Shown here: one piece after another, positions 6,770-29,083 of the stretch | Layout of the letters: each line of letters begins with the position of its first letter | Numbering within the stretch: position 1 is the stretch's first letter | Origin: Candidatus Latescibacterota bacterium | GTDB taxonomy: Bacteria > Latescibacterota > UBA2968 > UBA8231 | Assembly: GCA_965242865.1 (NCBI GenBank) | Contig: CBDETK010000013.1 | Location: 5,088,001 to 5,152,000, forward strand | Length of the DNA: 64,000 nt | Direction of reading: 5' to 3' | Translations under genes and position numbers: made by a program | The notes under the pieces: generated by a model | The model's database searches: none | What the model saw: only the letters and a program-made list of their open reading frames with translations | What the model was told of the DNA's origin: nothing

Positions 6770-7945
6770 ATGAAATACATCCCCCGCCTCCTCGAAACCG
6801 AGCTCCTCCAAGCTGTCCGGCACTTTCCCGCGGTGCTCCTGACCGGCCCGCGCCGCGCCGGCAAGACCACCTTGCTGCGCCATTTATTTCCCCGCGCCGA
6901 ATACTATCTAGTCGAAGACCCCGATATTATCGCCCGCCTGCGCTCAGACCCCCGGGCCTTTCTCGACGAGATTCGCCCGCCCGTTATCCTCGACGAAATC
7001 CAGAACGTCCCGGAACTGCTCGGCTATATCCGCACCCGCATCGACGCCCGCCCCGACCGGCTGGGCCAATGGCTCCTCACCGGCTCTCAGGAAGCGCCCC
7101 TCATGCGGGGGGTGACCGAATCCATGGCCGGCCGGGCCGCGATCTTCCAGCTCATGCCCCTGTCCGTGCGGGAGACGGCCGCGACCTCCCTGCTCAAAGG
7201 CGGCTTCCCCGAAGTGTTAGCTCGGCCCTCAGTGGCCCGCACTTGGTTCGCCTCGTACGTCCAGACCTATCTGGAGCGGGATGTGCGCGCCGTCAGTGCC
7301 ATTGGCGACTTAGCCACCTTCCGCCGCTTCGTCGCGCTGGTGGCCAGCCGCTGCGGCCAAATCCTCAACAAGACCGACTTAGCCGCGCCCCTCGGGGTCT
7401 CTGTGCCGACGATTTCGGCTTGGCTGAACATCCTCGAAATCACCGCCCAGATCATCTTGGTCCCGCCCTTCTACCACAACTTTGGCAAACGGCTCGTCAA
7501 ATCGCCCAAAATATACTTCGTCGATTCGGGCTTGGCCTGCCACCTACTGGGCATTGAGACCGCCGCGGCCTTGCGTGCTTCCCCTTTTTATGGTGCGCTT
7601 TTTGAGGGCTTTGTCGCCGCAGAAATCGCCAAGCAGCAGCTCAATACCGCCCGCCGCCGCGAACTGTATTACTTCCGCGACCAGCAGGGGCTTGAGGTCG
7701 ATTTTCTCGTGCCCGCCGGCCCCGCCCGCCTGCTGCTGGTAGAGGCCAAGGCCGGCCATACCGTAGATCCCGGGGCGGCCCGGTCCCTGTTGCGTCTAGA
7801 CAAGGCCATCGACGAGTACGAGGTCGAGCGTCTGGTCGCGCATCAGCCGTTGCCCGATACGCCAAACCTGTCCGCGCTCTGTCCGGGCGTGCGGGCGGTC
7901 TCGGTCGAGGGGTTGCTGGAGCACCTGACGTACCCCCAAGCCTGA
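6770..7945 (+). CDS. AAA_14 ATPase with DUF4143 domain
   Basis: Walker A GPRRAGKT, ILDEIQ, LTGSQ, KSPKIYFVDSGLA, EVDFLV...VEAK. Confidence 0.92.
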   Translation: MKYIPRLLETELLQAVRHFPAVLLTGPRRAGKTTLLRHLFPRAEYYLVEDPDIIARLRSDPRAFLDEIRPPVILDEIQNVPELLGYIRTRIDARPDRLGQWLLTGSQEAPLMRGVTESMAGRAAIFQLMPLSVRETAATSLLKGGFPEVLARPSVARTWFASYVQTYLERDVRAVSAIGDLATFRRFVALVASRCGQILNKTDLAAPLGVSVPTISAWLNILEITAQIILVPPFYHNFGKRLVKSPKIYFVDSGLACHLLGIETAAALRASPFYGALFEGFVAAEIAKQQLNTARRRELYYFRDQQGLEVDFLVPAGPARLLLVEAKAGHTVDPGAARSLLRLDKAIDEYEVERLVAHQPLPDTPNLSALCPGVRAVSVEGLLEHLTYPQA

Positions 7946-9493: not shown

Positions 9494-9555
9494 GCTACTA
9501 CCAAACCAAAAAGGTGCCGGAAATTTTGGCTTAGCGACCAATAATCTGCTGCGAT

Positions 9556-10494
9556 CTACCGCCCTTCCTCATCCATGAACTTCTTTATGTCCCTGCCGTA
9601 GCGCACGAGATTCTCCAGCTTTGCACCTACTATATGGCTCTCACAGCCGATCTTTGGGCCAGCATGATTCGGAGAATAGAAACGCCCATACGGAAAGTAC
9701 GACCGCAGCCAATAGACCCTCCTGTTGTCTTTCTTTAGAGGCACGATGCGTGCGATTAGAGGCCGGACGCTGGAATCAGCATCAGCGATACCCTCTACTT
9801 CTCTTTTTGGGGTTCTCTCGGCACCCCTTTCAAAAACATACGTTCTCGCCTTATCGTACGCTCTATCGCCTTGGGTAACGACCACGTCGGGCTCAAGAAT
9901 TCTCACTTCCTCGCTGAGATAGCCTCCACAATTCTTGTACAGTTGGGCCGGCTCTTGCTTTTTTCCATCGGAGTTGGAGAAACACTTCGCCGTTCGCACA
10001 TGAAAGAAGAGTTCCATTATTATTCTTAAACTCTCCTCATCCTCTGCTGGCTTTAGTTCGATAAAGGGATCGAGGAGACTCCGGACGGTCGTTGTCGTCC
10101 CTCGCCAGTGCGATTTCCGAGGAAGATAGAAAGGCTTGCCCTCCTCTGGCTCTGGCTTTTTTTTCATTGGCTCCGAAGCGGACAGGGAGACAACCACGAT
10201 ACGCGGGATACGGTGGCCTTTGTACTTCTTTTCTGAGTAGTATTGGCTGACTGTAGAGCCCTCAGATTCCTCCGTCCGAGGGGAAAAGAGAAATTTCGTG
10301 TCTCCGTCTCCACCCGAACGTTTACGTTCATAATCGAGCTTACAGGCATTCCGACAGTCATCCTTATTAGGACAACCGAAAGAGTCAAACATCTTTTCGT
10401 AATCGTAGTAGCCCTTGCTGTCTGTCACTCCTTTCACAGACTTGATACTAGCTCCCTCGTAATAGTTTTTGAGTTTGTTCTCCATCTCATTCAT
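9556..10494 (-). CDS. Divergent uracil-DNA glycosylase superfamily-like protein (copy 1)
   Basis: TAKC..N, NCGGYLSEEVRILEPDVVVTQG resembles the UDG core. Lower GC than neighbours; SD AAGGAG. Confidence 0.6.
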   Translation of the reverse strand: MNEMENKLKNYYEGASIKSVKGVTDSKGYYDYEKMFDSFGCPNKDDCRNACKLDYERKRSGGDGDTKFLFSPRTEESEGSTVSQYYSEKKYKGHRIPRIVVVSLSASEPMKKKPEPEEGKPFYLPRKSHWRGTTTTVRSLLDPFIELKPAEDEESLRIIMELFFHVRTAKCFSNSDGKKQEPAQLYKNCGGYLSEEVRILEPDVVVTQGDRAYDKARTYVFERGAERTPKREVEGIADADSSVRPLIARIVPLKKDNRRVYWLRSYFPYGRFYSPNHAGPKIGCESHIVGAKLENLVRYGRDIKKFMDEEGR

Positions 10495-10570
10495 GATTGT
10501 CTCCTTTTGACGTTTAATGGTTTAGAGATTGTACTGCTCGAAATCCCCCAAGGCATCACAAGTATTGTCT

Positions 10571-10598
10571 CGTCATTCCCGCAAAAGCGGGAATCCAG
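10571..10598. repeat. REP-like palindrome (cgtcattcccgc-aaaa-gcgggaatccag)
   Basis: Hairpin ATTCCCGC/GCGGGAAT; related elements at ~29002 and ~37195. Confidence 0.7.
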
Positions 10599-10809
10599 TC
10601 AACGTTTGTAAAACGAACTTGGATGACTGCTGTTAGCCGCCGGATCCTTCGTATAGGCTGTGAACACAGTCCCACCGTTTTAAGAAGCTAGTACTAGGTG
10701 GATCATGGCAATCTGAATCAAGGCTTCGCTCTGGCGCGTCAGGACCTCATACTCTCGGGCATGGCGTCTAAAATTCATCAACCATGCTCAGGTGCGCTCA
10801 ACGACCCAA

Positions 10810-11000
10810 CGCCGTTTGAGTACAGTACCGGTTCGATCGGCTGCCATTGCTCATCGGTTACATCGGTGGCATATTGACCAATCGGCGTACTCATTATATG
10901 AGCCTTTCTGTTCAGATTTTTTAGCGAAACCTGAAGATGGCTTAATGAGTACGCCAACTCAAATACGCGATACATCACAGAGTTTTCAGACAGCTTCTGA
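10810..11000 (-). mobile_element. IS5-family transposase remnant (5' end)
   Basis: QYATDVTDEQWQPIEPVL matches the IS5 N-terminal YxxDLTDxQW motif; terminus-like TCAGAAGCTGTCTGAAAA. Confidence 0.65.
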
Positions 11001-11201
11001 GAAGAAAGAAACCCTAACAGAGACCAAATTTCCCCCCCACGCCTCGATTGACCAGCTGGCCGAACTCAAAGCACACTGGGAACGCCAAGACCGCCAAAAA
11101 AGCCCCAATTCGCACAATTCGCCCCCAACTAAACCCACGCCAGAGACAAAAATCGTTTATGCGCCTTGACCCGTAAGCGATTTTAACGCCCCTAAGACCG
11201 C

Positions 11202-11750
11202 TTACTCCGCGCCCACCGACTCCAAATACTCGACAACCTCCGTACGACCTTTCCGCGCCGCCCGGGCTTTAGCCGTCCAGCCGCTATTGTCCCTCGCGTT
11301 CACGTCCGCCCCCTGACCGACCAAATAACGAACCACCTCAAAACGACCACCACGCGCCGCATTGTGCAGAGCCGTCCTGCCGTATCTGTTCGTAGCGTCC
11401 AAGTCCGCCCCCTGCTCGACCAAATACCGAACCACCTCCAAATGACCGCGCTCCGCCGCCGCAAAAAGAACCGTCCTGCCGTATCTGTTCGTAGCGTCCA
11501 AGTCCGCCCCCTGCTCGACCAAATACCGAACCACCTCCAAATGACCGCGCTCCGCCGCCGCAAAAAGAACCGTACTGCCGGAGCTGCCCCCCGTAGCGTC
11601 CAAGTCCGCCCCCTGCTCGACCAAATACCGAACCACCTCCAAATGACCGCGCTCCGCCGCCGCAAAAAAGCCGACACCCGATCCAATCGAGTGACGACTT
11701 CTTGCGATTTGAGCGAACAAGCCTACCCGCCACGATCCTACCAACCGCAA
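11202..11750 (-). CDS. Ankyrin repeat module, probably an orphan or 5'-truncated
   Basis: Four-plus ankyrin repeats (AAERGHLEVVRYLVEQGADLDA), three identical at DNA level. No signal peptide and no convincing start. Confidence 0.75.
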   Translation of the reverse strand: MRLVGSWRVGLFAQIARSRHSIGSGVGFFAAAERGHLEVVRYLVEQGADLDATGGSSGSTVLFAAAERGHLEVVRYLVEQGADLDATNRYGRTVLFAAAERGHLEVVRYLVEQGADLDATNRYGRTALHNAARGGRFEVVRYLVGQGADVNARDNSGWTAKARAARKGRTEVVEYLESVGAE

Positions 11751-13027
11751 GCACCTAGCACCAGATCGACCGCCTTCGCAGAACCACGCAGATCAAACAC
11801 AAAATCGCCCGCGCCCCGTTTGCCTTCCGAATCTTTTATGCGAACAAAGAGCTGGGAACGAACCAGAAGATTCTGCGCCCATCGGATTTGTTGCACCCGC
11901 ACCTCCGCCAGCTTCCGCGAGTATTTTGACATCGGGTAAAGCGTCTCTCGATCCTTAGAGACCACCCACTTTTTTGAAACCGCTTTGAGTTTATCAAACC
12001 GCCAAATAACATCGCTGGAAGCATCAGACTCATACGCTACCTTCACCCCTTGAGGCAAAATTTGCACCTCAAAGACTTCCCCGCCATCGCAGGTTATTCC
12101 AAGGAGTGCGCCTGAACGGCCACGGACAAAATCCTCTGAAGGCAGCACAGCAAACACGTTCTGCTTGTCATTGACCGGATCTAACTCTTGATCAACCTCC
12201 CACTTGCCAACCCCAGACGAAGGAATTGAAATAAGTTTCTCGCGCTCACCCACCGACGCCAAATACGCCGCCACATCCGTTTCACCCATCCCCGCAGCCC
12301 GGCCCCGAGGCGTCCGGCCGTTGTTGTCCCTAGCCGTGACATCTGCTCCCTGACCCACCAAATACCGCACAACCTCCAAATAACCGCGCTCCGCCGCCCT
12401 GTGCAGAGCCGTGTTGTCGTATCTGTTCTCAGCGTTCACGTCCAACCCCTGCTCCTCCACCAAGTACCGAACCACCTCCAAATGACCGCGCCCCGCCGCA
12501 GAGTGCAGAGCCGTCCAGTCGTCCCGCGTCATAGCGACGTCCAAACCGAGACCCACCAAATACTCCACTACCGCCACTGAGCCGCCCAAGGCCGCCGGGT
12601 GAAGAACCGTCCCGCCCAAGTTGTCCGTAGCGTTGACGTCCAACCCCTGCTCCTCAACCAGATACTCCACTACTTCCAATTTCCCAGACCTAGCGGCCGC
12701 GTGCAAAGCCGTAAAGCCATTGAAGTCCTTAGCGTTCACGTCCGCCCCTTGACCCACCAAATACTTGACCAGATCCAAATTTCCAGACCCAGCAGCCCCA
12801 TACAGAGGCGTCGCGCTTCCACTGCCCTTACTCTCAACTGACATGCCCGACTGTACGAATAGCTTGACGACCGCTAAGTTGCCCGCCGCTGCCGAATCAA
12901 CAAACGCCCATTCAGTGTAGTCAATACCTCGACGATCTAGCTCCGCACGAGCCGCCGCGGTACTCGCTGACGAAGCCGCCGGCAAAGAAAACAATGCCAA
13001 ACCCAACAAGAGCACCAAAAAACGCAT
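11738..13027 (-). CDS. Secreted ankyrin repeat protein with an extra C-terminal domain (VasI/TagO-like)
   Basis: Signal peptide MRFLVLLLGLALFSLPA, ~7 ankyrin repeats, C-terminal WEVDQELDPVND...LGITCDGG domain. Confidence 0.88.
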   Translation of the reverse strand: MRFLVLLLGLALFSLPAASSASTAAARAELDRRGIDYTEWAFVDSAAAGNLAVVKLFVQSGMSVESKGSGSATPLYGAAGSGNLDLVKYLVGQGADVNAKDFNGFTALHAAARSGKLEVVEYLVEEQGLDVNATDNLGGTVLHPAALGGSVAVVEYLVGLGLDVAMTRDDWTALHSAAGRGHLEVVRYLVEEQGLDVNAENRYDNTALHRAAERGYLEVVRYLVGQGADVTARDNNGRTPRGRAAGMGETDVAAYLASVGEREKLISIPSSGVGKWEVDQELDPVNDKQNVFAVLPSEDFVRGRSGALLGITCDGGEVFEVQILPQGVKVAYESDASSDVIWRFDKLKAVSKKWVVSKDRETLYPMSKYSRKLAEVRVQQIRWAQNLLVRSQLFVRIKDSEGKRGAGDFVFDLRGSAKAVDLVLGACGW

Positions 13028-13075
13028 ACCAAATCTCCTCCTCGAATAAGTGAATGTAGGCTTACTCCTCTTGAC

Positions 13076-14281
13076 TTACCCGCCCACAGACTCCAAATAC
13101 GCCGCTACCGCCGTATAACCACGCGCCGCCGCCACGCCCCGAGCCGTCTCGTCGCCGTAGTTCTTCGCGTTCACATCCGCACCCTGACCGACCAAATACC
13201 GAACCACCGCCAAATGACCGCCGCCCGCCGCCCAATGCAACGCTGTCCAGCCGTATTCGCCCGTAGCGTTGACGTCCGCCCCATTCTCGACCAAATACTC
13301 CACTACCGCCAAATGATCTTCCGCCGCCGCAGAGTGCAGAGCCGTTAAGCCGTCGTTCCTCGAAGCGTTCACGTCCATCCCCAGCTCCTCCACCAAATAC
13401 CGAACCACCTCCAGACTACCCGCCCAGAACAGAGCCGTCTCGCCGAAGTTGTCCGTAGCGTTGACGTCCGCCCCCTGCTCAAGCAGATACTGAACCACCC
13501 CCAAATGACCATACTCCGCCGCCCTGTGCAGAGCCGTACCGTGGTCGGTCTTAGCGTTGACGTCCGACCCCAGCCCCACCAAAAAACGAACCACCGCCAA
13601 ATGACCATTACCCGCCGCAGAGTGCAGAGCCGTAGAGCCGTCGTTGTCCGTAGCGTTGACGTCCGCCCCCTGACCGACCAAATACTGAACCACCGACAAA
13701 TGACCATAGTTCGCCGCAAGACTCAGAGCCGTATAGCCGTTGTCGGACGTAGCGTTGACGTCCGACCCCAGCCCCACCAAAAAACGAACCACCGCCAAAT
13801 GACCATTGAGCGCCGCATCAAGAAAAGCCGTGAAGCCGCCGCGGGTCGTAGCTTTAACCGACATACCCCCCTGTACGAACAACCGCACAACCGCCAAGTT
13901 GCCATCCCACGCCGCATCAAGAAAAGCCGCCGCCGTGTACTCGATACCCAGACTATCCAACGCCGCACGAGCCGCCGCCGGCGACCGGAAAACCACGGGC
14001 ACCGGCTCCTCCTCCTCCTCCTCCTCCGCTTCCGGGCTATCTACTGGATCCGCAACGACCTCCTCGGTCACCGTGCTATCCGCCCCCGCTGCGGCCGTGC
14101 TATCCGCGGGTGTCTCTGCCGCGGTACTATCCACGCCCACAATCGCGCTCCCACCCTCCTTGAACAAGTCAAATAGACCACCGCTCGACACCTTGCCCGA
14201 AGGCTCCGAAGGCGACACCGGCATAGACCGATCCCCGCAGCCCAACCACAACCCAACCAAGACCAACAGCAAAAAGCGCAT
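13076..14281 (-). CDS. Ankyrin repeat lipoprotein
   Basis: Lipobox LWLGC, acidic ADST/poly-E linker, ~9 ankyrin repeats. SD GAGGAGG precedes ATG 14281. Confidence 0.9.
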   Translation of the reverse strand: MRFLLLVLVGLWLGCGDRSMPVSPSEPSGKVSSGGLFDLFKEGGSAIVGVDSTAAETPADSTAAAGADSTVTEEVVADPVDSPEAEEEEEEEPVPVVFRSPAAARAALDSLGIEYTAAAFLDAAWDGNLAVVRLFVQGGMSVKATTRGGFTAFLDAALNGHLAVVRFLVGLGSDVNATSDNGYTALSLAANYGHLSVVQYLVGQGADVNATDNDGSTALHSAAGNGHLAVVRFLVGLGSDVNAKTDHGTALHRAAEYGHLGVVQYLLEQGADVNATDNFGETALFWAGSLEVVRYLVEELGMDVNASRNDGLTALHSAAAEDHLAVVEYLVENGADVNATGEYGWTALHWAAGGGHLAVVRYLVGQGADVNAKNYGDETARGVAAARGYTAVAAYLESVGG

Positions 14282-14449
14282 CCTATCCTCCTCAGTGAAT
14301 GATTTATAAGCCAAAACTAAGATTATCCGCACCGCCCCAGAGCCACACAAAAAAACGACGGGCCTCCCCCCGCCGAAACAGAGAAAGACCCGGTTCGCAA
14401 TAAAAAGGTGCTGACGATTTTGGCTTAGTGCCCAATAATCTGCTGCGAT

Positions 14450-15349
14450 CTACCGCCCTTCCTCATCCATGAACTTCTTTATGTCCCTGCCGTAGCGCAC
14501 GAGATTCTCCCGCTTTGCGCCCGCTATACCCCTCTCAGAATCAACAGGTTTCCCTGCATGCTCAGAGTAGAACTTTGTCCTCGGATTCGGAAAATCCGGC
14601 CGCAGCCAATAGACTTTCCAGTCATCTTCCTTTAGGCGCACGATACGTGCGATGGAATTATCGATACCCTCTACTTTTTCAACTATAGTACTCTCGGCAT
14701 TTTCATCAAAAACATGCCTTTTTGCTTGCCAGTGTGCATGATTGCCTTGGGTAACGACCACGTCAGGCTTGAGAATACTCACTTCCTTGCTGAGATACTC
14801 TCCACAATTCTCGTACAATAGGTTGGGCTCTTGCCCTGGTCCACCGACATTGGAGAAACACTTCGCCGTTCGCACATGAACAAACAATTCCCCTATTATT
14901 TTTGTACTCTCGTTACTCCAATCTCCTGCTGGAGCTAGATCAACAAAGGGGTCAAGCAGGCTCCTAATGGTCGTCGTCGTTCCTCGCCAGTGTGGGTTCA
15001 GCGAGAAAGACTTGCCCTCCGCTTGCTCTGGCTTTTTTTCCATTGGCTCCGAAGCGGACAGGGAGACAACCACGATACGCGGGATACGGTGGCCTTTGTA
15101 CTTCTTTTCTGAGTAGTATCGGCTGACTGTAGCTTCCTCCGTCCGAGGGGAAAAGAGAAATTTCGAGTCGTCGCTTAAAGGTTTATAAGCGTTCCTACAG
15201 GCATCCCGACAGTCATCCTTCTTACGACAACCGAAAGAGTCAAACATCTTTTCGTAATCGTAATAGCCCTTGCTGTCTTCCACTTCTTTCACAGAAGTAA
15301 TACCAACTTCCTCGTAATACTTTTTGAGTTTGCTCTCCATCTCATTCAT
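14450..15349 (-). CDS. Divergent uracil-DNA glycosylase superfamily-like protein (copy 2)
   Basis: Paralogue of 9556..10494; NCGEYLSKEVSILKPDVVVTQG. Confidence 0.6.
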   Translation of the reverse strand: MNEMESKLKKYYEEVGITSVKEVEDSKGYYDYEKMFDSFGCRKKDDCRDACRNAYKPLSDDSKFLFSPRTEEATVSRYYSEKKYKGHRIPRIVVVSLSASEPMEKKPEQAEGKSFSLNPHWRGTTTTIRSLLDPFVDLAPAGDWSNESTKIIGELFVHVRTAKCFSNVGGPGQEPNLLYENCGEYLSKEVSILKPDVVVTQGNHAHWQAKRHVFDENAESTIVEKVEGIDNSIARIVRLKEDDWKVYWLRPDFPNPRTKFYSEHAGKPVDSERGIAGAKRENLVRYGRDIKKFMDEEGR

Positions 15350-15480
15350 GATTGTCTCCTTTTGGGAATGTTAAGGGCTTGTCGCGATCGAAATCCCCTA
15401 AGTCATCGCAAAGCCTCCAGCAGTAAACGCCGACAAACTAACAAACTTTTGAAAAAAATCAAGAAAATCTTAAAAAAACT

Positions 15481-17811
15481 TCAATAAACCACTGAAATCA
15501 CGCGCCGGACGCGCTGCTGCTGAGCGTCTCCGTCGAGGTGGAGGTCGAGCAGGTAAAGGCCGGGCGGCACCCGGTGCCCGGCTTGGTCGCGGCCATCCCA
15601 CGTGAAATGCCGAGTACCCGCGGTGACCGCTTGCGTCCGCTCGACGAGCACGCGACCGGCCAAGTCGTAGAGCCGCAGGTGCCAAGGGCGCGGCGCGAGG
15701 AGGTTGATCACGTCGGCGCGGACGGTCAGCACGTCGTTTATGCCGTCGCCGTTGGGCGTCAGCACCTCCGCGTCAAAGACGACGTTGAGCAGGAGATCGC
15801 GGGCGACCGGAAGGCCGACGACATTGGTGCTGCTGGCGACTTGGTCCGTAGCATCCCCGGGATCGACGCGCTGGCGGCTGGCGTCCGCCGTGCGAGCGTC
15901 TTGAATGAAAAGGACGAAGGGCGTGGACTGCTGGAAAACTTGGGCGGCAAAGCGCAACTCCACGAGGTCGGCGTCGCGCAACGGCTGGGGGAAGGTCACC
16001 GCAAAGCCCGCTTCAACCGGCTGGGCTGCAACCGCTAGGGGCGCGTCGTTGACCAAGGCGCGAATAAAGCGCGTCCGCGTCGGCGTCTCCAACACGAGGC
16101 GGTCGAACCCGGAGGCCCTCGTCTGGCGCGGGCGCAAAAAGAAGCGGAACTCGGTTTCTTCGCCCGGCACCACCTCGGTCGGGAAAATTTCGCTGACCGC
16201 ACGCTGAGACAACGGGTCGCTGAAGGCAATGCTGAGCGCGTCGAGTTGTAGGGCCACCGCTGGGTCGGCCGTGACCATCCGCAGCTGGAGTTGGGCGTAG
16301 CGGCGCGGCGAAGGCGATTGGAACGCTTGGCCCGAAAAGGCGTAGAGCTTGCTCCACGCGCTCCAATCGTCGCCGATGACCTCAGCGGTGTCGATCGGCC
16401 CCTTGAAGCTCGGAATCAGCTTGTCGTAGCGCCGCTTGCTGACTTGCTTGCCGTTCTTGTCGTAATAGGTCAGCAGGTTTTCGACTTGGTTGCCGGAGCG
16501 GCTGCGTAGCTCCAGTCGAGTGCCCGGCGGGATGTCGGCCTTCCACGACAGGGCGTTGAGGCTTTTGACGCGCTCAAAGTCCATGATGTGCGAGCGAAAT
16601 TCCAAGCTATGAGGAAAGCCCTCGCCGAACACCTGAAGCTCCTCGGCAAACCCCCGAAAGGCCCAGCGATTGCTCGCGTCCCAACTCTTCCACAACACCC
16701 GAATAAAGCGGGTGGGCACCAGCCCAAACTCGTGGGTGGCCGCTCCGGTCACTTCTTTGACGTGTTGGCTGGCCGTGCCAGCATAGTACTTCTGCCAGAT
16801 CAGGGAGCCATCGGGCGCGACCGAGCCAGCGGAACCGAGCACCTCGTAGAAGTTGAACCCAAAGGAGCGCCGGGTGATGAAGAAGTCGATGACCCGGCCG
16901 CTGCCAGCGGTGATGCCGCCGCCGGGCCGGGCCACGACGCCGCCGACAATTTTGAGCTTGTCGATGAAGTACGTGGCCCCCAAGTCGAGGACGATGTGCG
17001 AAAAGACGTCGCGCTCGGCTTGGATGGTGCGCCGCACAAACCAGCGCGTGGAGAGATCGCCGTCGATGAGCACTTGGGCGTTGCCCAGCGGAATGAGGTC
17101 TTGGGTGACGAACGCGTCGAGGACTACTTCGAGATTGCCACCGCGCGCCAGCATCCACAAGGCCAGATTGTCGCCGAGTGCTTCCACCTCGACCTCGAGG
17201 AGACGGGTGCCGGGTTCGAGGGCGAGCAGGTCCAAGCGCACGTACTGGATCGGCGTGTGGAAGGGCTGGTCGAGTTCGTACGCGATCTCGTGGCGGGTAT
17301 TCTCCTTGAATCGCTCGCGCTGGCGGTAGATGACGGTCTCGGCGATGGGGTTATCTACCTCGTCAACGGCGTGTTCGCCCGTGGAAAGCAGCAGGTCAAA
17401 AAGCGACGGTGCCGGGCCTTGGGGGTCAAAGATCAGCTTGACGCGGCGGGCGGAGACTCCCCGCCCCAAATCGAGCTCAAGGGTCCAGTTCGCAGGCGGA
17501 TCGTCGAGCTGGGGACGCCAGCCGGTGGCGCGGTCGCTGTCCATGACCAGCGGCGCGTCTCGCAGATTGGAACCCGCGCGGCGGATGCCGCCGCCAAAGG
17601 CCGCAGCATTGAGCGCGGCATTGATGTCGCGGCGAACCGCAACGGGCTTGAGCCCGCCCTGTGGCGTTAGCGCGACCGTGCCGGGCAGGGGCCAAGCCTG
17701 CCAGTCGCGGCGGGAGGCAAAGCGAAGCTCGTCGGCATTCGCCGGAGGAAGCCAGCCGAGCAAGGCGCAGACGACCGCACCGCAGCGCGTTACGCACCGT
17801 GAAGAAGCCAT
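15481..17811 (-). CDS. Secreted protein with discoidin-like regions and a C-terminal FlgD-Ig / T9SS-type sorting domain
   Basis: Signal peptide; TPNGDGIND; LYDLAGR...WDGRDQAG..VPPGLY. Confidence 0.82.
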   Translation of the reverse strand: MASSRCVTRCGAVVCALLGWLPPANADELRFASRRDWQAWPLPGTVALTPQGGLKPVAVRRDINAALNAAAFGGGIRRAGSNLRDAPLVMDSDRATGWRPQLDDPPANWTLELDLGRGVSARRVKLIFDPQGPAPSLFDLLLSTGEHAVDEVDNPIAETVIYRQRERFKENTRHEIAYELDQPFHTPIQYVRLDLLALEPGTRLLEVEVEALGDNLALWMLARGGNLEVVLDAFVTQDLIPLGNAQVLIDGDLSTRWFVRRTIQAERDVFSHIVLDLGATYFIDKLKIVGGVVARPGGGITAGSGRVIDFFITRRSFGFNFYEVLGSAGSVAPDGSLIWQKYYAGTASQHVKEVTGAATHEFGLVPTRFIRVLWKSWDASNRWAFRGFAEELQVFGEGFPHSLEFRSHIMDFERVKSLNALSWKADIPPGTRLELRSRSGNQVENLLTYYDKNGKQVSKRRYDKLIPSFKGPIDTAEVIGDDWSAWSKLYAFSGQAFQSPSPRRYAQLQLRMVTADPAVALQLDALSIAFSDPLSQRAVSEIFPTEVVPGEETEFRFFLRPRQTRASGFDRLVLETPTRTRFIRALVNDAPLAVAAQPVEAGFAVTFPQPLRDADLVELRFAAQVFQQSTPFVLFIQDARTADASRQRVDPGDATDQVASSTNVVGLPVARDLLLNVVFDAEVLTPNGDGINDVLTVRADVINLLAPRPWHLRLYDLAGRVLVERTQAVTAGTRHFTWDGRDQAGHRVPPGLYLLDLHLDGDAQQQRVRRVISVVY

Positions 17812-18752: not shown

Positions 18753-20450
18753 TCAGAAGTCGATTCGCCAGATCCCTGTGGCTTGTTTGGCCATCCAAAC
18801 TTGGTGTGCGTGGAGTTTCTCCACGGTCCAAGTATCAAAGTCTTCTGCCAGCTTGCGCGTTATTGCGAAGTCGCTCCCTTGGTAGGCCGAGTGCTTTTCG
18901 GCATATCCCGAATTGCCCAAATCGCGATTGGCGGCGGTCGTCAAGAGCGTCATGTTCCCTAGACGATACGTAGCAGCCTCCCGCTGTTGCTCGTCGAACT
19001 GGCCCCAGCCGTCATGCGGATTTTCCGGCAACACGTGCTCAATGTCGTATTTCGCGCTCTCGGCTTCAAAGCGCTGTCCCGACAACTGCGCTTCGAGCGC
19101 GAACAGTATAAAGCGCACGACTCTATTGTTGCGGGAGTTGGTCGTCCGCAGTTCCTTTTCGACAAACGCCGCCCTAAATTCCGCGTCCTCGGGATAGACC
19201 GGCCGCAGCTTTGCAATCGCCGCTTGCACACTGTCGATTGTGCCGGCCGATAGCTCACAGGCAATCCGGTTATATACCACCTCCTGCTCGTTGCTTTGGC
19301 GGCCACCAATCACGTTGTATCGAAACGATACCACCGCGATAGCACGCAAGAACCGTCCAAAGCCGGCGCGGTCGCGTTCCCCAAATCGCTCAAATGCCGC
19401 CAGCAATAACGCCAAGGGCTGACGCACGTTGAACATCTGCAACTGGTCCAGATTTGTGCGCTCCTCTGCGGTCCAAGAGCCGTCCTCTGGCCGACGCAAC
19501 GCCGAATACACCCGCGCGGATTGGTCCATATCGCGGACCAACTGAAACACCCTAGACCGATCGCTTATTGTACGGCGCAGGGTTTTGAACAAGTCTGTCT
19601 TGCGCACCAGCCGGTTGCGGCTGTTCCAGAAAACCCGCAAAAACTCGGGAAAGCGCTCACTGCCCAGCAGCCCGACGATACCATCCCAGCGATCTTCCAA
19701 AGAGTTGATCTCTGATTCATGTGGATTGCCACGCGAGACGACCGAGAACAAGTGATTCTTCAGCAGATCCGTGGCAGACAAGCGCACACCGCGTGCGTTC
19801 AGGGTCTCAAACACCTTGAAGGCATTCAGTTCGTCGGTCACGGTGATGGTCGTAAAAAGCAGCTTATCTACCGCGCCATCGACAAAGCGCGCCACCGCCT
19901 CACCGTCGTCACCGGATCGTTCCTCAATGCGAGCCTTAAACCAGAGAAACGCCCGGCGCAGGAGCTGTTCCGATGCGTTCAACCCTCGTTGCGGCAGACG
20001 CTCCAAAGGGACTAGGTAATGCTGGTAAAAGCGATCGTTGTGCCGATTTAGCTCCAGTTTGGAGCGCGGCACTAGGCTCACCGGGTCCAAATAGCCGATG
20101 TAATTGCTGCGCAACTGCTCGGCGCGTCGGCGTTGTGGGTCCGCCGGGTCGTCCGACGCGGCCAAGTCCGTCAGACGCGCCACCGCGGCCAGCATCAACA
20201 GGCTCAACGTGGTCATGCGTTGCTGGCCGTCGATGATGTTGAACGCCCGGTTGTCCGCCGATTGCAATACCAGATAGCCCATGTAATGAGCGGGTTCTGG
20301 GTCGTCGCCGAACAGCGCGACCAAGTCCTGCCACAGGTCGTCCCACTCGTCGGCCCCCCAAGAATAGTCGCGTTGGAACTGGGGGACGCGATAACTCAGC
20401 CCATTGCCCATGAGTTGGCGAAACGTGCTGTTGGTGGCATTGAAATTCAT
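18753..20450 (-). CDS. DUF262 + DUF1524 protein (GmrSD-like modification-dependent restriction endonuclease)
   Basis: VPQFQRDYSW, IIDGQQRMTT, FETLNARG, DIEHVLPE, RLGNMTLL...N. Confidence 0.9.
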   Translation of the reverse strand: MNFNATNSTFRQLMGNGLSYRVPQFQRDYSWGADEWDDLWQDLVALFGDDPEPAHYMGYLVLQSADNRAFNIIDGQQRMTTLSLLMLAAVARLTDLAASDDPADPQRRRAEQLRSNYIGYLDPVSLVPRSKLELNRHNDRFYQHYLVPLERLPQRGLNASEQLLRRAFLWFKARIEERSGDDGEAVARFVDGAVDKLLFTTITVTDELNAFKVFETLNARGVRLSATDLLKNHLFSVVSRGNPHESEINSLEDRWDGIVGLLGSERFPEFLRVFWNSRNRLVRKTDLFKTLRRTISDRSRVFQLVRDMDQSARVYSALRRPEDGSWTAEERTNLDQLQMFNVRQPLALLLAAFERFGERDRAGFGRFLRAIAVVSFRYNVIGGRQSNEQEVVYNRIACELSAGTIDSVQAAIAKLRPVYPEDAEFRAAFVEKELRTTNSRNNRVVRFILFALEAQLSGQRFEAESAKYDIEHVLPENPHDGWGQFDEQQREAATYRLGNMTLLTTAANRDLGNSGYAEKHSAYQGSDFAITRKLAEDFDTWTVEKLHAHQVWMAKQATGIWRIDF

Positions 20451-20518
20451 CGGCGTCCTCTTTTGGGCCGATAGAGCACTTGCTATTTTCAGCCCAAACT
20501 TACGCAAGGAGGAGGCCA

Positions 20519-21727
20519 ATGGCCAAAATCAAGGAAGTCCGCTGCATCCGCACCCGCCAAAACGGCACCTGGGTCATCGTCAAAATCATCACTGACCAGC
20601 CCGGTCTCTACGGCATTGGCTCGGCCAGCGAGCACAACCACGCGGCCACGGTCGTCACAGCCCTCGAAGAGAGCTTGGGGCCGCTGCTGATTGGCCGCGA
20701 GGCCAGCCGCATCGAAGATATATGGCAGTGCCTCTACACCAGCGGCTACTGGCGCAGCGGCTCCATTCTCAACGCCGCGCTGGGCGGGATCGACATGGCC
20801 CTGTGGGACATCAAGGGCAAGGAGGCCGGAATGCCCGTGTACGATCTGCTCGGCGGGGCCTGCCGTGCGGCCGTGCCCTGCTACGCCCACGCCGGCGGCA
20901 GCGACCACGCGGCCCTCGCCGAGGACGTCCAACGCTACATCGACGAGGGCTGGCCGGTGATCCGCTGCCAACTCGGGGGCTATGGCGGCGGCGGGTTCGT
21001 GGAAAACGCCCCCAAGCCGCGCAACCCGTGGTCGGCGGCCCCGGCCTTTGACGACGAAGCCTATCTCGAAGCCATCCCGGCCATGTTCGACTATCTCCGC
21101 AAGCACCTCGGATTTGGCCCCAAGCTGACCCACGACGTCCACGAGCACCTCAAGCCCCAAGTCGCGGTGGCTCTGGCCAAGCGGCTGGAACCCTACCGCC
21201 TTTTCTTTTTGGAAGACGCGCTCGCGCCCGAGCAAATCGGCTGGTTCCGGCTCATGCGCCAGCAATGCACCACGCCGCAGGCCATGGGCGAGCTATTCGT
21301 CAATGTCCACGAATACTTGCCGCTGATCAGCGAACGCCTCATCGATTACGTCCGTGTGCGGGTGGCCAAAGGCGGCGGCATCACCCCGTGCCGCAAAATC
21401 GCCGCGCTCTGCGAGTTCTACGGCGTCCAGACGGCTTGGCAGGAGGGCGGGGACAACGATCCGGTCAACCAAGCGGCCGCCATGCACTTAGACATGGCGA
21501 GCTACAGCTTTGGCATTCAAGAGGAAAACGGGTTCGGGCCAGCCGAGTTGGAGGCGTTTCCCGGACACGCGACTATGGAAGGGGGCTACATGTATCCCAA
21601 CGACCAGCCCGGCTTGGGAATCGACATCGACGAGGACAAGGCCAAGAAGCTGTTGGTGGGCGATCAGGTGCGCGCTTTTTACGCGGCCGAAGACCGCCGC
21701 GCCGACGGCAGCGTGGTGCGGCCCTAG
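20519..21727 (+). CDS. D-mannonate dehydratase (RspA/ManD)-like enolase superfamily protein
   Basis: KIITDQPGLYGIG, DMALWDIKGK, HDVHE, FLED, MGE, PGLGID; strong SD. Confidence 0.9.
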   Translation: MAKIKEVRCIRTRQNGTWVIVKIITDQPGLYGIGSASEHNHAATVVTALEESLGPLLIGREASRIEDIWQCLYTSGYWRSGSILNAALGGIDMALWDIKGKEAGMPVYDLLGGACRAAVPCYAHAGGSDHAALAEDVQRYIDEGWPVIRCQLGGYGGGGFVENAPKPRNPWSAAPAFDDEAYLEAIPAMFDYLRKHLGFGPKLTHDVHEHLKPQVAVALAKRLEPYRLFFLEDALAPEQIGWFRLMRQQCTTPQAMGELFVNVHEYLPLISERLIDYVRVRVAKGGGITPCRKIAALCEFYGVQTAWQEGGDNDPVNQAAAMHLDMASYSFGIQEENGFGPAELEAFPGHATMEGGYMYPNDQPGLGIDIDEDKAKKLLVGDQVRAFYAAEDRRADGSVVRP

Positions 21728-22065: not shown

Positions 22066-23775
22066 CTACCAAACACCTAGCACGATGTGCAGTGGACGCA
22101 ACAACCCCGTAGCTAATTCTTTGGAGTCTGAGCCATCAAAGTTGACGCTCCCAACGTTATTCGCGCCAAAGTCCGCCCAGTATATCTTTTCGTTCTCTAC
22201 ATCCAGCGCGATGCCCCATGCCGTCGTCACCCCCGTAAAGACGTCTTGGACGTCTGATCCATTGTCCAAGTTGGCAGACCGAATTCTACTGCCCGTGCTC
22301 ATGGTCCAGGAAACCCAGTATATCTTTCTGTTCACCAAATCCAGCGCGAGGCCCGATGCATTATTCACGTCCGTACCCGTAAGGAAGTCGGTGGGGTTTT
22401 CGCCATTCAGGTCGGCAGACTGAATCTTATGCTCGGCCCAGTCCGTCCAGTACATCTTTTCGCTCTTTACATCCAGCGCGATGCTCTGTGGCGCAGTATT
22501 CAAACCCGTCGTGGTCAAGAGTTTTCGGCGGTCTGAGCCATCCAAGTTGACAATCCCGATAGAATCCGCGGCCGTCCAGTATATCTTTCTGTTCACCGCA
22601 TCCAGCGCGATGCCCCGTGGCGAACCGAATCCCGAGGCGAGGGTTTGCGTGTTTGAGCCATCCAAGTCGGCCCACCGAAGCGAACCCCCTAGGACCGAGT
22701 CCGTCCAGTATATCTTTCTGTTCACCGCATCCACCGCGATGCCCGCTGGCTTACTGCCTTGGGGCACCCAGCCGTATAAGTGAGTGTAAACTTGTTCGGG
22801 TTCGGGGATGAAGGATTGGGGGGTTGAGCCATTCAAGTTCATACGCCAAATCCGAGACTCTCTTGTTGTTTCATCTATACCTGTTCTTATGTCAGCGTCT
22901 ATAAAATATAGGGCGGACTCTGGTTCCGGTTCCTCTGGTAGTTCTGGATAGACTTGTACGGTTTCGACGCGGGGGTATTTTTCTAGTACCGCTTCGACGC
23001 GGAGGCCGCTTGTTATCGCGGCGGCGAGTTGTTGGTTGGCCGCGTGCTGGCTGAGGGCGTTTTCCATCACGCCCAGCCATTGCAGGTTCGTCAGGCTCGC
23101 CAAGGGACTCACGTCGGTAATCGCGTTGTCTCCTAGCTGGATCCATTGCAGGTTCGTTAGGCGAGCTAACGGACTCACGTCCGTAATTTCGTTGCCCCAC
23201 ATATCCAGCTTGCGCAAGCTGATCAGGCTGGCCAGCGGACTCGCATCCGCAACCTTGTTCCCCCACAGCGACAGCGTGTGCAGATTGGTTAGGCTCGCCA
23301 ACGGCTGCACGTCGGTAATCGCGTTGCCCCGCAGATACAGCGTTGTCAGTGCTGTTGCGTGTTCGAGGCCGGCCACGCTCTCAATGTTTTTATAGCTCGC
23401 GTCGAGTTCGGTCAGGGCCGCCAAGTCCGCCGGGGTCAGCGGCCCTTGCGGACGGTCCAACGCCTCCCTTACCGCCCGCTCCAGATTGGCGTCGGCGAAC
23501 TCCACGACCGCCGATTGGGTGCTGTCAGCGTCAGCGTCGGCGGTCTCGGTGCTATCGGCGTCGGCGTCGGTTTGGGTGGTATCAGGGCTTTCGGGGGCGG
23601 CCAACCCGTCGGTAGCGGTGTAGGCGTCGTCGCCCAAGAATTCGCATAAGGAACAGGTGGCTTTGCCCGCTGGCCGAGAAGCGACCGGCGCGGAGTCCGA
23701 GCAGCCCATCCAAGCCCCGACGATGCCCAAAAGGACGAACGCAAATAGGGTTTTGAGAGATTTCAACGAAAGCAT
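22066..23775 (-). CDS. LRR + YWTD beta-propeller lipoprotein
   Basis: Lipobox AWMGC, internalin-like LRRs, ~6 YWTD-type repeats (GIALD..NRKIYWTD). Confidence 0.92.
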   Translation of the reverse strand: MLSLKSLKTLFAFVLLGIVGAWMGCSDSAPVASRPAGKATCSLCEFLGDDAYTATDGLAAPESPDTTQTDADADSTETADADADSTQSAVVEFADANLERAVREALDRPQGPLTPADLAALTELDASYKNIESVAGLEHATALTTLYLRGNAITDVQPLASLTNLHTLSLWGNKVADASPLASLISLRKLDMWGNEITDVSPLARLTNLQWIQLGDNAITDVSPLASLTNLQWLGVMENALSQHAANQQLAAAITSGLRVEAVLEKYPRVETVQVYPELPEEPEPESALYFIDADIRTGIDETTRESRIWRMNLNGSTPQSFIPEPEQVYTHLYGWVPQGSKPAGIAVDAVNRKIYWTDSVLGGSLRWADLDGSNTQTLASGFGSPRGIALDAVNRKIYWTAADSIGIVNLDGSDRRKLLTTTGLNTAPQSIALDVKSEKMYWTDWAEHKIQSADLNGENPTDFLTGTDVNNASGLALDLVNRKIYWVSWTMSTGSRIRSANLDNGSDVQDVFTGVTTAWGIALDVENEKIYWADFGANNVGSVNFDGSDSKELATGLLRPLHIVLGVW

Positions 23776-24124
23776 GGTTTGCTCCTTTGCATGGGTTGGA
23801 AGAAGGACTGAGTACACGACCCCCTACTTTGCGAACGCCTTTTCTGCTGTTCTCGATGAATCCGAGCTGGAGGGCGTCTCGCCTTCGACGAGGACAGGAT
23901 GCCCGCGCTCTTTGGAAGGCGAGTGGTGGGTCGTATCGTGAGGAAGAAGGGAATGGCGCGGCCGGGCTCGCCCTAGGGCGGTACTTTGGATAGGCCCCAG
24001 CCTACGTACACGGCGTACAGACGAAGGCCGACCGGCCGTGTGCGGTTTGGGGCCGTGCGGCCAGACCGCCGCGACGCCCAACAGCCGCGCACGATCCGTC
24101 GGCCTATGCTGAGAAGTAGAGAGT

Positions 24125-27456: not shown

Positions 27457-28713
27457 ATGAATTACAGAAATCGCCACTTAGAGGCCAAAATTCTTCGCTA
27501 TAAAGAGATTTTTCCCGTCCTGCTGGTGACCGGGGCGCGCCAAGTCGGCAAGAGCACCCTACTGAGCCATCTGTGCGGTGCGGTCATGCCCCATATTACC
27601 TTTGATCCGGTCATTGACGTGGGCAACGCCCGTCAAGACCCGGAATTCTTCATCGCCCAGCACCCGCCCCCCATCATATTGGACGAGATTCAGTACGCGC
27701 CCGAGCTGCTGGCGGTTATCAAACGCCGCGTCGATCGCGACGACGCGCCCGGACAGTATTTTCTGACCGGCTCTCAGAACTTAGCCCTGCTCCGCGATGC
27801 GAGCGAAAGTCTGGCCGGCCGAGTCGTCGTCCTCGATCTAGGGCCTTTGACCCTGAGCGAACGCCAAGGGTGCGGCTCGGGTGCTGGCCCCGGATGGTTA
27901 GAGCTTCTGCTAGAGGCCGGAGGCACTCTGCCGGACTTGCACCACCAAGCGCGTGTGCCAGCGGTCGCCCCGCTGCGGACCGCATTCGAGGTGCTGTGGA
28001 GAGGCGGCTACCCCCGGACGCTGGACCAATCGCCGGACGTCATTGCCGACATCATGCAATCCTACGTGCGGACCTATGTCGAGCGCGATGTACGCAGCCT
28101 AGCCAGCGTACAGGATCAGCAGCAGTTCACGCGCTTGCTCAGTCTGTGCGCTGCGTTGACGGCGCAGGAGATAAATCGCAGTCAGTTTGGCCGCGAAATC
28201 GGCGTTACTCCGCAGACGGCCGCACGCTGGCTGCACATCCTCAAGGCGACCTACCAATGGCTGGAGCTGCCGCCCTACCACGGCAGCGCGATCAAACGGA
28301 TCAGCGGCAAACCCAAAGGCTACCTGACCGACACCGGGCTAGCCGCTTTCCTACAGCGAATTTCCTCGCCCGCGGCCCTGTCTGGCCATCCCCTGCTCGG
28401 GGCGCTTTTTGAGACGCACGTAGTGCTGGATATCCACCGCACCTTCCACTGCTTGACCATGCCTCCCCAAGTCTATCACTGGCGCACCCTCGCGGGTGCA
28501 GAGGTTGATTTGCTGCTGGAGCGCGATGGAATTTTCTGGCCGGTGGAAATCAAGAGCGGCACGCGCATCACGAGCGCCGATGCACGGGGCATCCGCGCCT
28601 TCCGAGAAACCTATCCGGCCCTGCGCCACGGCCCGGGAATTATCGTCGCCCCGGTAGAAGAGGTCTTCCAACTACGCGACGAGGTCCTCGTCATCCCGTA
28701 CGATCTGCTGTAA
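27457..28713 (+). CDS. AAA_14 ATPase with DUF4143 domain
   Basis: GARQVGKST, ILDEIQY, LTGSQ, PKGYLTDTGLA, EVDLLLE..VEIK. Confidence 0.92.
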   Translation: MNYRNRHLEAKILRYKEIFPVLLVTGARQVGKSTLLSHLCGAVMPHITFDPVIDVGNARQDPEFFIAQHPPPIILDEIQYAPELLAVIKRRVDRDDAPGQYFLTGSQNLALLRDASESLAGRVVVLDLGPLTLSERQGCGSGAGPGWLELLLEAGGTLPDLHHQARVPAVAPLRTAFEVLWRGGYPRTLDQSPDVIADIMQSYVRTYVERDVRSLASVQDQQQFTRLLSLCAALTAQEINRSQFGREIGVTPQTAARWLHILKATYQWLELPPYHGSAIKRISGKPKGYLTDTGLAAFLQRISSPAALSGHPLLGALFETHVVLDIHRTFHCLTMPPQVYHWRTLAGAEVDLLLERDGIFWPVEIKSGTRITSADARGIRAFRETYPALRHGPGIIVAPVEEVFQLRDEVLVIPYDLL

Positions 28714-28892: not shown

Positions 28893-29083
28893 AATGTTCA
28901 TCGGCCCTGCTTTTTGCATACAGTCGTCATTGCCCAGCGAGGAACCCCTTGGGTCGAACACCACGCCCCACCAGGAGACAAAAGGGCTTGACGAGAAACA
29001 CGGATACTCCCGCAAACGCGGGAATCCAGTCTTGAAGGATGTAGGATTGCTATATTGCGGCCTTGGTCGAAGCATTCCCTTTT

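Follow-up and report, generated by a model that had tools for sequence, protein, structure and literature searches.

Mosaic relatives of iron-sulfur uracil-DNA glycosylases with an apparently rebuilt pocket, a possible phage defense of sponge-associated bacteria

Within a 64,000-nucleotide stretch of the genome of a Candidatus Latescibacterota bacterium (GenBank assembly GCA_965242865.1, contig CBDETK010000013.1, positions 5,088,001 to 5,152,000; here referred to as the window), we analyzed two paralogous genes, A and B, whose products belong to the uracil-DNA glycosylase (UDG) superfamily and carry putative iron-sulfur (Fe-S) ligands. The two genes are mosaics of one another, their variable segments are exchanged as cassettes between alleles and species, and three positions of the predicted base-binding pocket appear to have been rebuilt and then held fixed. 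Together, they may represent a new kind of phage defense that targets DNA bases in sponge-associated bacteria. Both open reading frames (ORFs) were found where the original prediction had placed them, and they are the only copies in this 6.0-Mb genome:

9556..10494, minus strand: paralog A, 312 amino acids (aa), Fe-S UDG-superfamily protein of the SLS/R clade, motif-B region ...YWLRSYFP...
14450..15349, minus strand: paralog B, 299 aa, SLS/R clade, motif-B region ...YWLRPDFP...

The two proteins are 66% identical over their full length, with 21 gapped positions (BLASTP E value, 5e-136). At the DNA level, an exact-match scan combined with an alignment revealed two identical blocks of 79 nucleotides (nt), one spanning the YYSEKKYKGHRIPRIVVVSLSASEPM block (10243..10165 = 15119..15041) and the other spanning the C-terminal codons plus 18 nt past the stop (9616..9538 = 14510..14432), while the remaining exact blocks measured 37, 32, 31, and 31 nt. 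The alternation of identical blocks and indels described in the original prediction is therefore real, but the intervening segments, taken there to be wholly different, can still be aligned at 31 to 52% aa identity. A repeat finder delimited the duplicated unit at ca. 9508-10509 and 14402-15364, that is, the gene, its ribosome-binding site, and ca. 48 nt of 3' flank. Given that repeat family D7 and one of the exact blocks run across the stop codon, the duplicated unit extends beyond the coding sequence, with the following parts outside it:

9508..9555, minus strand: 3' flank of A, common to B (repeat family D7, 9508-9643 versus 14402-14537, 90% identical; the exact 79-nt block crosses the stop codon)
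14402..14449, minus strand: 3' flank of B, common to A (DNA alignment, exact-match scan, and repeat finder)
10495..10509, minus strand: ribosome-binding region of A, shared with B (AAAAGGAGACAATC ahead of the ATG; exact 31-nt block 10509..10479 = 15364..15334)
15350..15364, minus strand: ribosome-binding region of B, shared with A (counterpart of 10495-10509; DNA alignment and exact-match scan)

The silent sites show that this mosaic goes beyond uneven protein constraint or chance. Among the 200 codons that specify the same degenerate amino acid in A and B, 27 were silently different, and these differences were clustered, with a longest silent-free run of 66 codons (permutation P value, 0.0002) and 37 runs overall (P value, 0.0025). 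The proportion of synonymous differences was 0 over alignment columns 61 to 115 and 296 to 312, while it reached 0.5 to 0.68 over columns 121 to 145, where the protein is nearly unchanged; by block, pS reached 0.65 in C2. Such clustering indicates a mosaic generated by gene conversion or recombination between two old alleles rather than uniformly fast evolution.

In order to follow the segments across the family, we split the protein into conserved and variable blocks (V1 to V6) and compared identities block by block. In homolog P0018, V6 was 100% identical to that of A, and it was 90 to 93% identical in eleven other alleles with a V5 only 26 to 36% identical to that of A; conversely, the V5 block of A recurred (97%) only in P0023, whose V6 was 55% identical. 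Along similar lines, the copy at locus L022, from a different species of the same genus, was nearer to A than B is in columns 181 to 200 (93% versus 78% nucleotide identity) and far nearer to B in columns 201 to 260 (87 to 92% versus 68 to 77%). Insertions relative to B were present in 76 to 79% of clade members near residues 51 to 60, 101 to 110, and 231 to 240 (residue numbering is that of copy B throughout), regions with an entropy of 1.6 to 2.2 bits versus 0.4 to 0.7 bits in the core blocks. These comparisons indicate that the six variable segments are exchanged as cassettes between alleles, both window copies, and species by homologous recombination across the near-identical conserved blocks. 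The view of the family as mosaic and mobile is thus supported by the per-block identities, the nucleotide comparison with L022, and the genome distribution described below. A diversity-generating retroelement or other form of targeted mutagenesis was set aside as the source of variation, since the variable blocks carry indels and are shared whole with other alleles.

The earlier notion of rapidly diversifying, hypervariable loops is not supported as it stood. The mosaic is chiefly a signature of recombination or gene conversion, with silent sites identical in some blocks, and does not prove that such loops are under positive selection; one variable segment, V5, is predicted as confident helices instead of a loop. 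The ratio of nonsynonymous to synonymous substitution rates (dN/dS, Nei-Gojobori) between A and B was 0.66 overall, 0.83 for the pooled variable blocks, and 0.31 for the conserved blocks. Within the N-terminal 40 codons, dN/dS exceeded 1 in five of the six pairs among A, B, L022, and L023, on 0 to 3 synonymous changes. With an overall value of 0.66 and variable blocks at about 1, positive selection is not shown; the pattern is compatible with relaxed or diversifying selection and demonstrates neither.

The fold of the protein was predicted for paralog B with AlphaFold2 (AF2) from a 64-sequence alignment, giving a confident model (pLDDT, 84.2; pTM, 0.87). Foldseek returned 34 PDB matches at an E value of ≤0.001, and among the matches listed, all were UDG-superfamily structures; VIA also gave matches to UDG families. 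At the level of the fold, with an alpha/beta architecture and a central parallel sheet as in UDG families 1 to 6, A and B are thus predicted to be stand-alone UDG-fold proteins of ca. 300 aa, as had been proposed from their sequence.

Sequence libraries recognized them far less readily. The Pfam UDG model (PF03167) scored 17.3 bits for A (E value, 0.0054) and 15.2 bits for B, under its gathering cutoff of 24.3, and precomputed PF03167 matches were found in 4 of 120 homologs, among the matches listed. The NCBIfam family-4 UDG models (TIGR00758 and NF040953) reached 11.6 to 16.7 bits, below their cutoffs of 125.3 and 250. Neither paralog matched PHROGs, a single-protein sequence search of the PDB gave nothing at an E value of ≤10, and none of the curated libraries scanned (Pfam, NCBIfam, PADLOC, and PHROGs) names the clade. 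Profiles were more sensitive: against the PDB, the clade profile (A1) matched 4zbx, the Sulfolobus tokodaii UDG (StoUDG), with an E value of 0.0022, and a profile including the wider family (A2) matched the same structure with an E value of 7.9e-9. An exhaustive phmmer search of 1.84 billion representatives recovered 250 proteins at an E value of ≤0.001, 29 at 1e-10, and 17 at 1e-30. The distant relatives (phmmer E values of 1e-11 to 1e-5) are ca. 245 to 270 aa long, and 28 of the 30 scanned matched the Pfam UDG model at an E value of ≤0.01, with 17 of 30 reaching the gathering score. The window genes therefore form a small derived clade inside a wider, uncharacterized UDG-like family.

Four cysteines, C21, C27, C127, and C145, were invariant in 60 sequences of both the clade and the wider family (alignment A2), the N-terminal pair belonging to a C-x5-C-x3-C motif where C-x4-C-x3-C had been read originally. 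C127 and C145 align with the KC...C pair of StoUDG (4zbx), which are family-4 [4Fe-4S] ligands. The proteins thus carry the four cysteines of a family-4 UDG, which probably form a [4Fe-4S] site.

The clade departs from its relatives in the pocket. In the wider family, SLD[PS]G follows strand 1 and FAHxN[SA]AKC lies on strand 2, accompanied by NCR, TQG, and YHP[ST]; at the same columns, the clade has SLS[AV][PS]xP, FVHxRT[AG]KC, NCG, VTQG, and Y[FH]P. In the window proteins, motif A reads S-L-S-A-S-E-P in place of the family-4 G-E-x-P-G, and motif B, which aligns to TYHPAA of 4zbx, reads SYFP in A and PDFP in B, with Phe in both where HPS or HPA would be expected. The replacement of the canonical residues of both motifs, as originally claimed, was confirmed by the motif table and the profile alignment. 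N82 of StoUDG, which touches the flipped base at its Watson-Crick face according to the Brig1 paper (PMC11078745), aligns with an Asn column in the wider family; in the clade, this position is an invariant Arg, R160. Across 64 clade members that are 44 to 87% identical to B, S96, S98, P102, T124, R129, H158, R160, K163, C164, and T200-Q201-G202 were invariant, and H120 and W121 were at least 90% conserved; the His-Trp pair (in alignment A2) and the TQG strand were invariant across both groups. In a phylogenetic tree, for which 167 of 238 sequences were kept and 71 were dropped as too short or incomplete, all 127 sequences with S98 and R160 formed one group with no other state within it. Three pocket positions therefore appear to have been rebuilt and then held fixed, with Ser98 for Asp, Arg160 for Asn, and, in most members, Phe for His. 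The invariance of Ser96, Ser98, Pro102, His158, and Arg160, together with the conserved His-Trp pair, points to a working pocket rather than decay.

Several homologs of unusual architecture were noted. P0241, a member of the wider family, has a UDG-like domain with the canonical Asp, Asn, and His fused to DUF4268 (E value, 1.8e-15) and offers a lead to the function of that family. Among proteins of 525 to 2,000 aa, the only fused form was P0121 (532 aa, the gene at L027 9992-11590), with a UDG-like domain and a 235-aa C-terminal extension (best Pfam E value, 0.055; no Atlas match above 0.84). Genes for a WYL-WCX regulator and a three-module AAA ATPase precede its gene, and M48 peptidase and NucS-like genes follow it. 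Domain searches with the C-terminal 112 aa of P0126 gave nothing.

We then considered how the gene is distributed. Of 804 candidates from a word-index search, 136 matched at an E value of ≤0.001, nearly all of them encoded in metagenome assemblies; three carried names, as hypothetical proteins of Gemmatimonadetes metagenome-assembled genomes (MAGs). Within the phylum, 24 of 168 genomes, that of the window included, had a match at an E value of ≤1e-10, a count that takes in some partial matches, possibly to members of the wider family; a full-length intact copy was present in 15 of the 168. Within the genus, 8 of 30 genomes matched, apart from that of the window. Copies were split or fragmentary in genomes G130, G074, G136, G086, and G078. 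Two decayed copies lie in one single-contig genome (L037 10001-10889 and L038 10001-10426), one split by a frameshift near residue 158 at a site syntenic with the window and the other truncated after residue 151. A scan of one genome per species yielded 17 loci, 14 in Latescibacterota/Latescibacteria, 2 in Poribacteria, and 1 in a Gemmatimonadaceae MAG, and JGI metagenome contigs provided 1 locus. The GC contents of A (0.494) and B (0.481) are low relative to that of the window (0.614), with neighboring genes at 0.56 to 0.65, and transposase genes were found within four ORFs at 5 of the 17 loci. The gene is thus accessory and moves horizontally, with a low GC content, a patchy distribution, frequent decay, and sometimes flanking insertion sequences (ISs), across Latescibacterota, Poribacteria, and Gemmatimonadota MAGs.

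Parts of both copies also occurred in sequencing runs. Run X6, labeled as a sponge metagenome, contained pieces nearly identical to B (14473-14879, with 3 differences) as well as a variant form of A. Contigs of run X4, from a separate study, matched variable stretches of both copies perfectly (9587-9904 and 14481-14768). The B allele of run X5 was divergent, differing at 49 positions of a 666-nt record and showing 8 gaps.

Defense-type genes were found around family members. Two loci carry putAbiC, and two carry the AccI restriction enzyme together with its methylase; other examples are a type IIG enzyme accompanied by an HNH gene, AAA_21, PIN, and WYL with AAA ATPases. Using PADLOC at an E value of ≤1e-10, 19 of 118 neighboring ORFs (four per side at the 17 loci) matched, at 11 of the loci, among them full type II restriction-modification pairs, HEC-01A/B, PD-T7-4, and PDC-S24. 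In a control of 16 random sites in eight of the same genomes, processed alike, 8 of 124 ORFs matched, at 7 of the sites. The enrichment was significant per ORF (Fisher P value, 0.024), and the data are suggestive of a mild enrichment of defense genes near family members.

We favor the reading that A and B are defense-type glycosylases, at a probability of roughly 0.45. The protein would bind DNA and flip out a base, and a noncanonical, probably phage-type modified, base would be recognized in a pocket formed by Trp121, Arg160, and Ser98. This base would most likely be excised, leaving abasic sites, as with Brig1, Brig2, and Brig3. Cassette exchange would vary the DNA-facing surface, driven by selection from changing phage DNA modifications or from phage-encoded DNA-mimic inhibitors, and A and B would be divergent alleles partly homogenized by gene conversion. 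A number of observations weigh against this reading. Neither paralog matched any PADLOC-DB 2.0 family at an E value of ≤0.1, no partner gene recurred among the 118 neighboring ORFs, and 2.9 million viral contigs held no relative. The enrichment of defense genes is significant per ORF but not per locus (11/17 versus 7/16; P value, 0.30); moreover, the loci are not all independent, with apparent synteny among L028, L036, and L038 and between L027 and L031, and many of the control and some of the test PADLOC matches are generic ATPase or kinase domains. As for catalysis, the Asp that is the sole acidic residue of motif A in the wider family is Ser98 in all 127 clade sequences kept, and at the motif-B position, 98 of these sequences have Phe, 24 have His, and 5 have some other residue. 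The support for the clade node is low (0.29, after 71 of 238 sequences had been dropped), and the placement of SLDPG on the GEGPG motif of TmUDG, from Thermotoga, is tentative, coming from a negative-scoring stretch. Finally, no block has a convincing dN/dS of >1, with V3, V4, and V5 at about 1 and the value of 2.09 for V1 resting on 11.5 nonsynonymous versus 1.5 synonymous changes.

Since the acidic residue of motif A is lost, and usually the motif-B His as well, a noncatalytic DNA reader stays a serious rival, if a somewhat doubtful one. Such a protein would have kept the fold, the Fe-S cluster, and base flipping or scanning but lost hydrolysis, serving as a sensor or reader, a blocker, or a decoy for phage UDG inhibitors. 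The uniform change from Asp to Ser and from the base-reading Asn to Arg in 127 of 127 members, the shift to Phe in 98 of 127, and the low family-4 NCBIfam scores would all suit this explanation. However, the strict invariance of Ser96, Ser98, Pro102, Arg160, and His158 and the His-Trp pair point to a defined pocket under purifying selection, and UDG families 2, 3, and 5 are active although they too lack an acidic motif-A residue. Brig1, according to the available part of its description, has also swapped the Asn (to Glu) and is active (PMC11078745). The favored glycosylase reading can be extended to a recombination-driven repertoire of base-recognition enzymes, in which a fixed Fe-S UDG core with a new Ser/Arg/Trp pocket would bear about six exchangeable DNA-facing cassettes. 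By shuffling these cassettes, alleles of the same or of different sponge-associated bacteria would be redirected to hypermodified phage bases or would evade DNA-mimic inhibitors. We consider this extension unlikely; if true, it would amount to combinatorial specificity as in hsdS shuffling, here applied to a glycosylase, with a possible chemistry not seen in UDGs, lacking both the acidic motif-A residue and the motif-B His.

A role for mobile elements themselves, either as cargo or in maintenance (e.g., an anti-restriction or repair helper on IS elements or islands), would account for the transposases within four ORFs at 5 of 17 loci, the low GC content, the patchy distribution, the fragmentary copies, and the IS-like remnant and multicopy palindromic repeat beside A (see below). 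It seems quite improbable, given that no one element type recurs (the IS110, IS1, IS1595, IS4/5-like, and ISAZ013 families were all seen), that viral contigs contained no relative, and that the 118 neighboring ORFs included no integrase or conjugation gene. The UDG fold and the Fe-S cysteines are also those of repair enzymes of families 4 to 6, as a housekeeping base excision repair glycosylase with an unusual lesion specificity and a chance duplication would require. This explanation is very improbable for a gene found in only 24 of 168 phylum genomes and 8 of 30 genus genomes, with several copies decayed, a GC content 12 to 13 points under that of the window, and cassettes exchanged between species. 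Scarcely credible is an assembly artifact in which strain variants were joined chimerically across the conserved blocks. Short-read assemblers could be misled by exact blocks this short (up to 79 nt), and many homologs come from metagenome contigs, but the contig that includes the window is at least 5.15 Mb long and belongs to a 13-contig assembly, run X4 reproduces variable parts of both copies exactly, and the same mosaic is seen against single-contig genomes.

Around the two genes, the window contains the following features:

11202-11750, 11738-13027, and 13076-14350, minus strand: three ankyrin-repeat ORFs between A and B, not members of the family (Pfam Ank families, E values down to 3.7e-86; 99-nt periodic repeats)
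14356..14392, minus strand: terminator-like hairpin followed by a T run, downstream of B (consensus scan alone; such hairpins are no more numerous than in shuffled sequences)
18753..20519, minus strand: GmrSD-type (type IV) restriction enzyme gene, 3.4 kb from B (Pfam GmrSD_N, 2.9e-35, and GmrSD_C, 1.4e-29; PADLOC HEC-06 E value, 3.1e-224)

With the terminator-like hairpin on its 3' side, B looks like a separate transcription unit. A adjoins an MR_MLE gene, as the single copy does in L022 and L037, and in L022, L023, and L037, one copy occupies the syntenic site, between the gene for a CHU_C protein of the type IX secretion system and an enolase-superfamily gene, with no ankyrin genes there. 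The GmrSD-like nuclease pointed out in the original prediction is real, but it is not a conserved partner: none of the 118 neighboring ORFs at the 17 other loci matched GmrSD (Pfam E value, ≤1e-5), nor did the two ORFs upstream of the CHU_C gene in L022 (E value, ≤1e-4). A conserved pairing was therefore rejected, and the absence of GmrSD from the scanned upstream ORFs of L022 suggests that it is probably an independent insertion in the window. A functional link to the ankyrin genes was likewise rejected, as no Ank family was among the Pfam matches (E value, ≤1e-5) of the same 118 ORFs. The ankyrin ORFs (11202-14350) have a strong negative GC skew, and the two long ones carry hydrophobic N-terminal leaders. 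Many joints in run contigs over these ORFs skip or repeat units, which indicates that the repeat number differs between samples. Eukaryote-like repeat proteins such as ankyrins have been reported for sponge symbionts, and another such protein is encoded nearby (22066-23817), with leucine-rich repeats and LDL-receptor class B repeats in one chain.

Between A and the ankyrin genes (ca. 10700-10980), a short ORF (10778..10978) and a downstream frame suggest the remnant of a deleted IS. From their motifs, we take them to recall the two ends of an IS4/IS5-type transposase; Pfam gave nothing for this region, nor did BLASTP against the DUF4096 ORF of L031. A perfect 20-nt palindrome, ATTCCCGCAAAAGCGGGAAT, lies at 10575-10594, ca. 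90 nt upstream of A, with a one-mismatch copy at 29006-29025. In the bin containing the palindrome, the summed contig depth was ca. 75,000 in run X2 versus ca. 90 to 1,300 elsewhere and was similarly extreme in X4, X5, and X6. Many run contigs end at this palindrome, which looks like a very abundant community repeat, similar to repetitive extragenic palindromes (REP) or miniature inverted-repeat transposable elements (MITE). Farther away, two genes code for AAA_14 plus DUF4143 ATPases (6770-7945 and 27457-28713), the first a PADLOC PDC-S01 match (E value, 1.1e-100) and the second known from the Pfam scan only. The first occupies the place of an AbiEii-like gene in L022, which marks a variable slot. 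Large secreted proteins are encoded at 24598-27279 (CotH kinase, Lamin-tail, and FlgD-Ig domains) and at 15481-17811 (F5/8 type C and a CHU_C sorting domain), indicating type IX secretion cargo in this lineage.

UDG-fold effectors of phage defense have been recognized only recently, with Brig1 in 2024 (PMC11078745) and Brig2 and Brig3 in preprints (10.1101/2025.10.29.685425 and 10.64898/2026.02.25.707755). In the accessible text of the literature on Brig1 and phage glycosylases, Fe-S UDGs in defense islands, and sponge-symbiont Latescibacteria, no family of Fe-S UDG-like proteins that has these motifs or a cassette mosaic is described, a search that did not extend to the supplementary Brig2 and Brig3 homolog tables of the preprints, which might include relatives from the wider family. 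The clade would add an Fe-S member in which Ser, Arg, and Phe replace Asp, Asn, and His, and a pocket rebuilt in this way predicts a new substrate or a new chemistry. It also shows clearly that a DNA glycosylase-like gene can undergo cassette-type recombination, with natural chimeras for mapping specificity determinants, and it offers a candidate defense gene common to three phyla recovered as MAGs, near-identical pieces of which occur in a sponge-metagenome run. If the protein is inactive, it would illustrate how a UDG scaffold can be converted to reading DNA.

In order to put the clade into perspective, we compared it with known systems. The family-4 UDGs (Sulfolobus tokodaii 4zby/4zbx, Thermus thermophilus 1ui0/1ui1, and Thermotoga maritima 1l9g/1vk2) share the KC...C-x-YL...P-x-[IV]-[IV]-V-T-x-G core, which aligns, and the four conserved cysteines of A and B are located at their Fe-S ligand sites. 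Motif A of these enzymes is of the G-E-x-P-G type, with a catalytic Glu. In contrast, A and B have SLSxxxP where the T. maritima sequence has GEGPG, Arg for Asn82, and Phe for the motif-B His; they exceed these enzymes in length by ca. 100 residues, have a conserved extension at the N terminus, and contain inserted variable segments, and their genes are accessory and mobile rather than core. The wider UDG-like family has in common with the clade the N-terminal YY...GI...F-C-x5-C region, the His-Trp pair, the four cysteines, and the TQG strand, whereas its three pocket positions are still Asp, Asn, and His, and its proteins are shorter (ca. 245 to 270 aa), lack the insertions of the clade, and reach the Pfam UDG cutoff in 17 of 30 cases scanned. 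UdgX of Mycobacterium smegmatis is an Fe-S UDG that links itself covalently to DNA; a similar covalent chemistry through Ser98 would be speculation. Among the Foldseek and VIA matches listed, no entry was titled Brig, and the comparison with these effectors is by description only. The Fe-S site, the cassette mosaicism, and the Ser/Arg pocket of the clade set it apart from Brig1, Brig2, and Brig3, for which the available parts of the sources (PMC11078745, 10.1101/2025.10.29.685425, and 10.64898/2026.02.25.707755) do not describe them. On the other hand, the canonical base-reading residue is changed in both Brig1, which uses Glu147 in this role according to the available text (PMC11078745), and the clade. 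Likewise, Brig2 homologs are described in the accessible part of the Brig2 preprint as associated with mobile genetic elements and located in AT-rich regions; a similar association with mobile elements and low-GC regions may hold for the clade.

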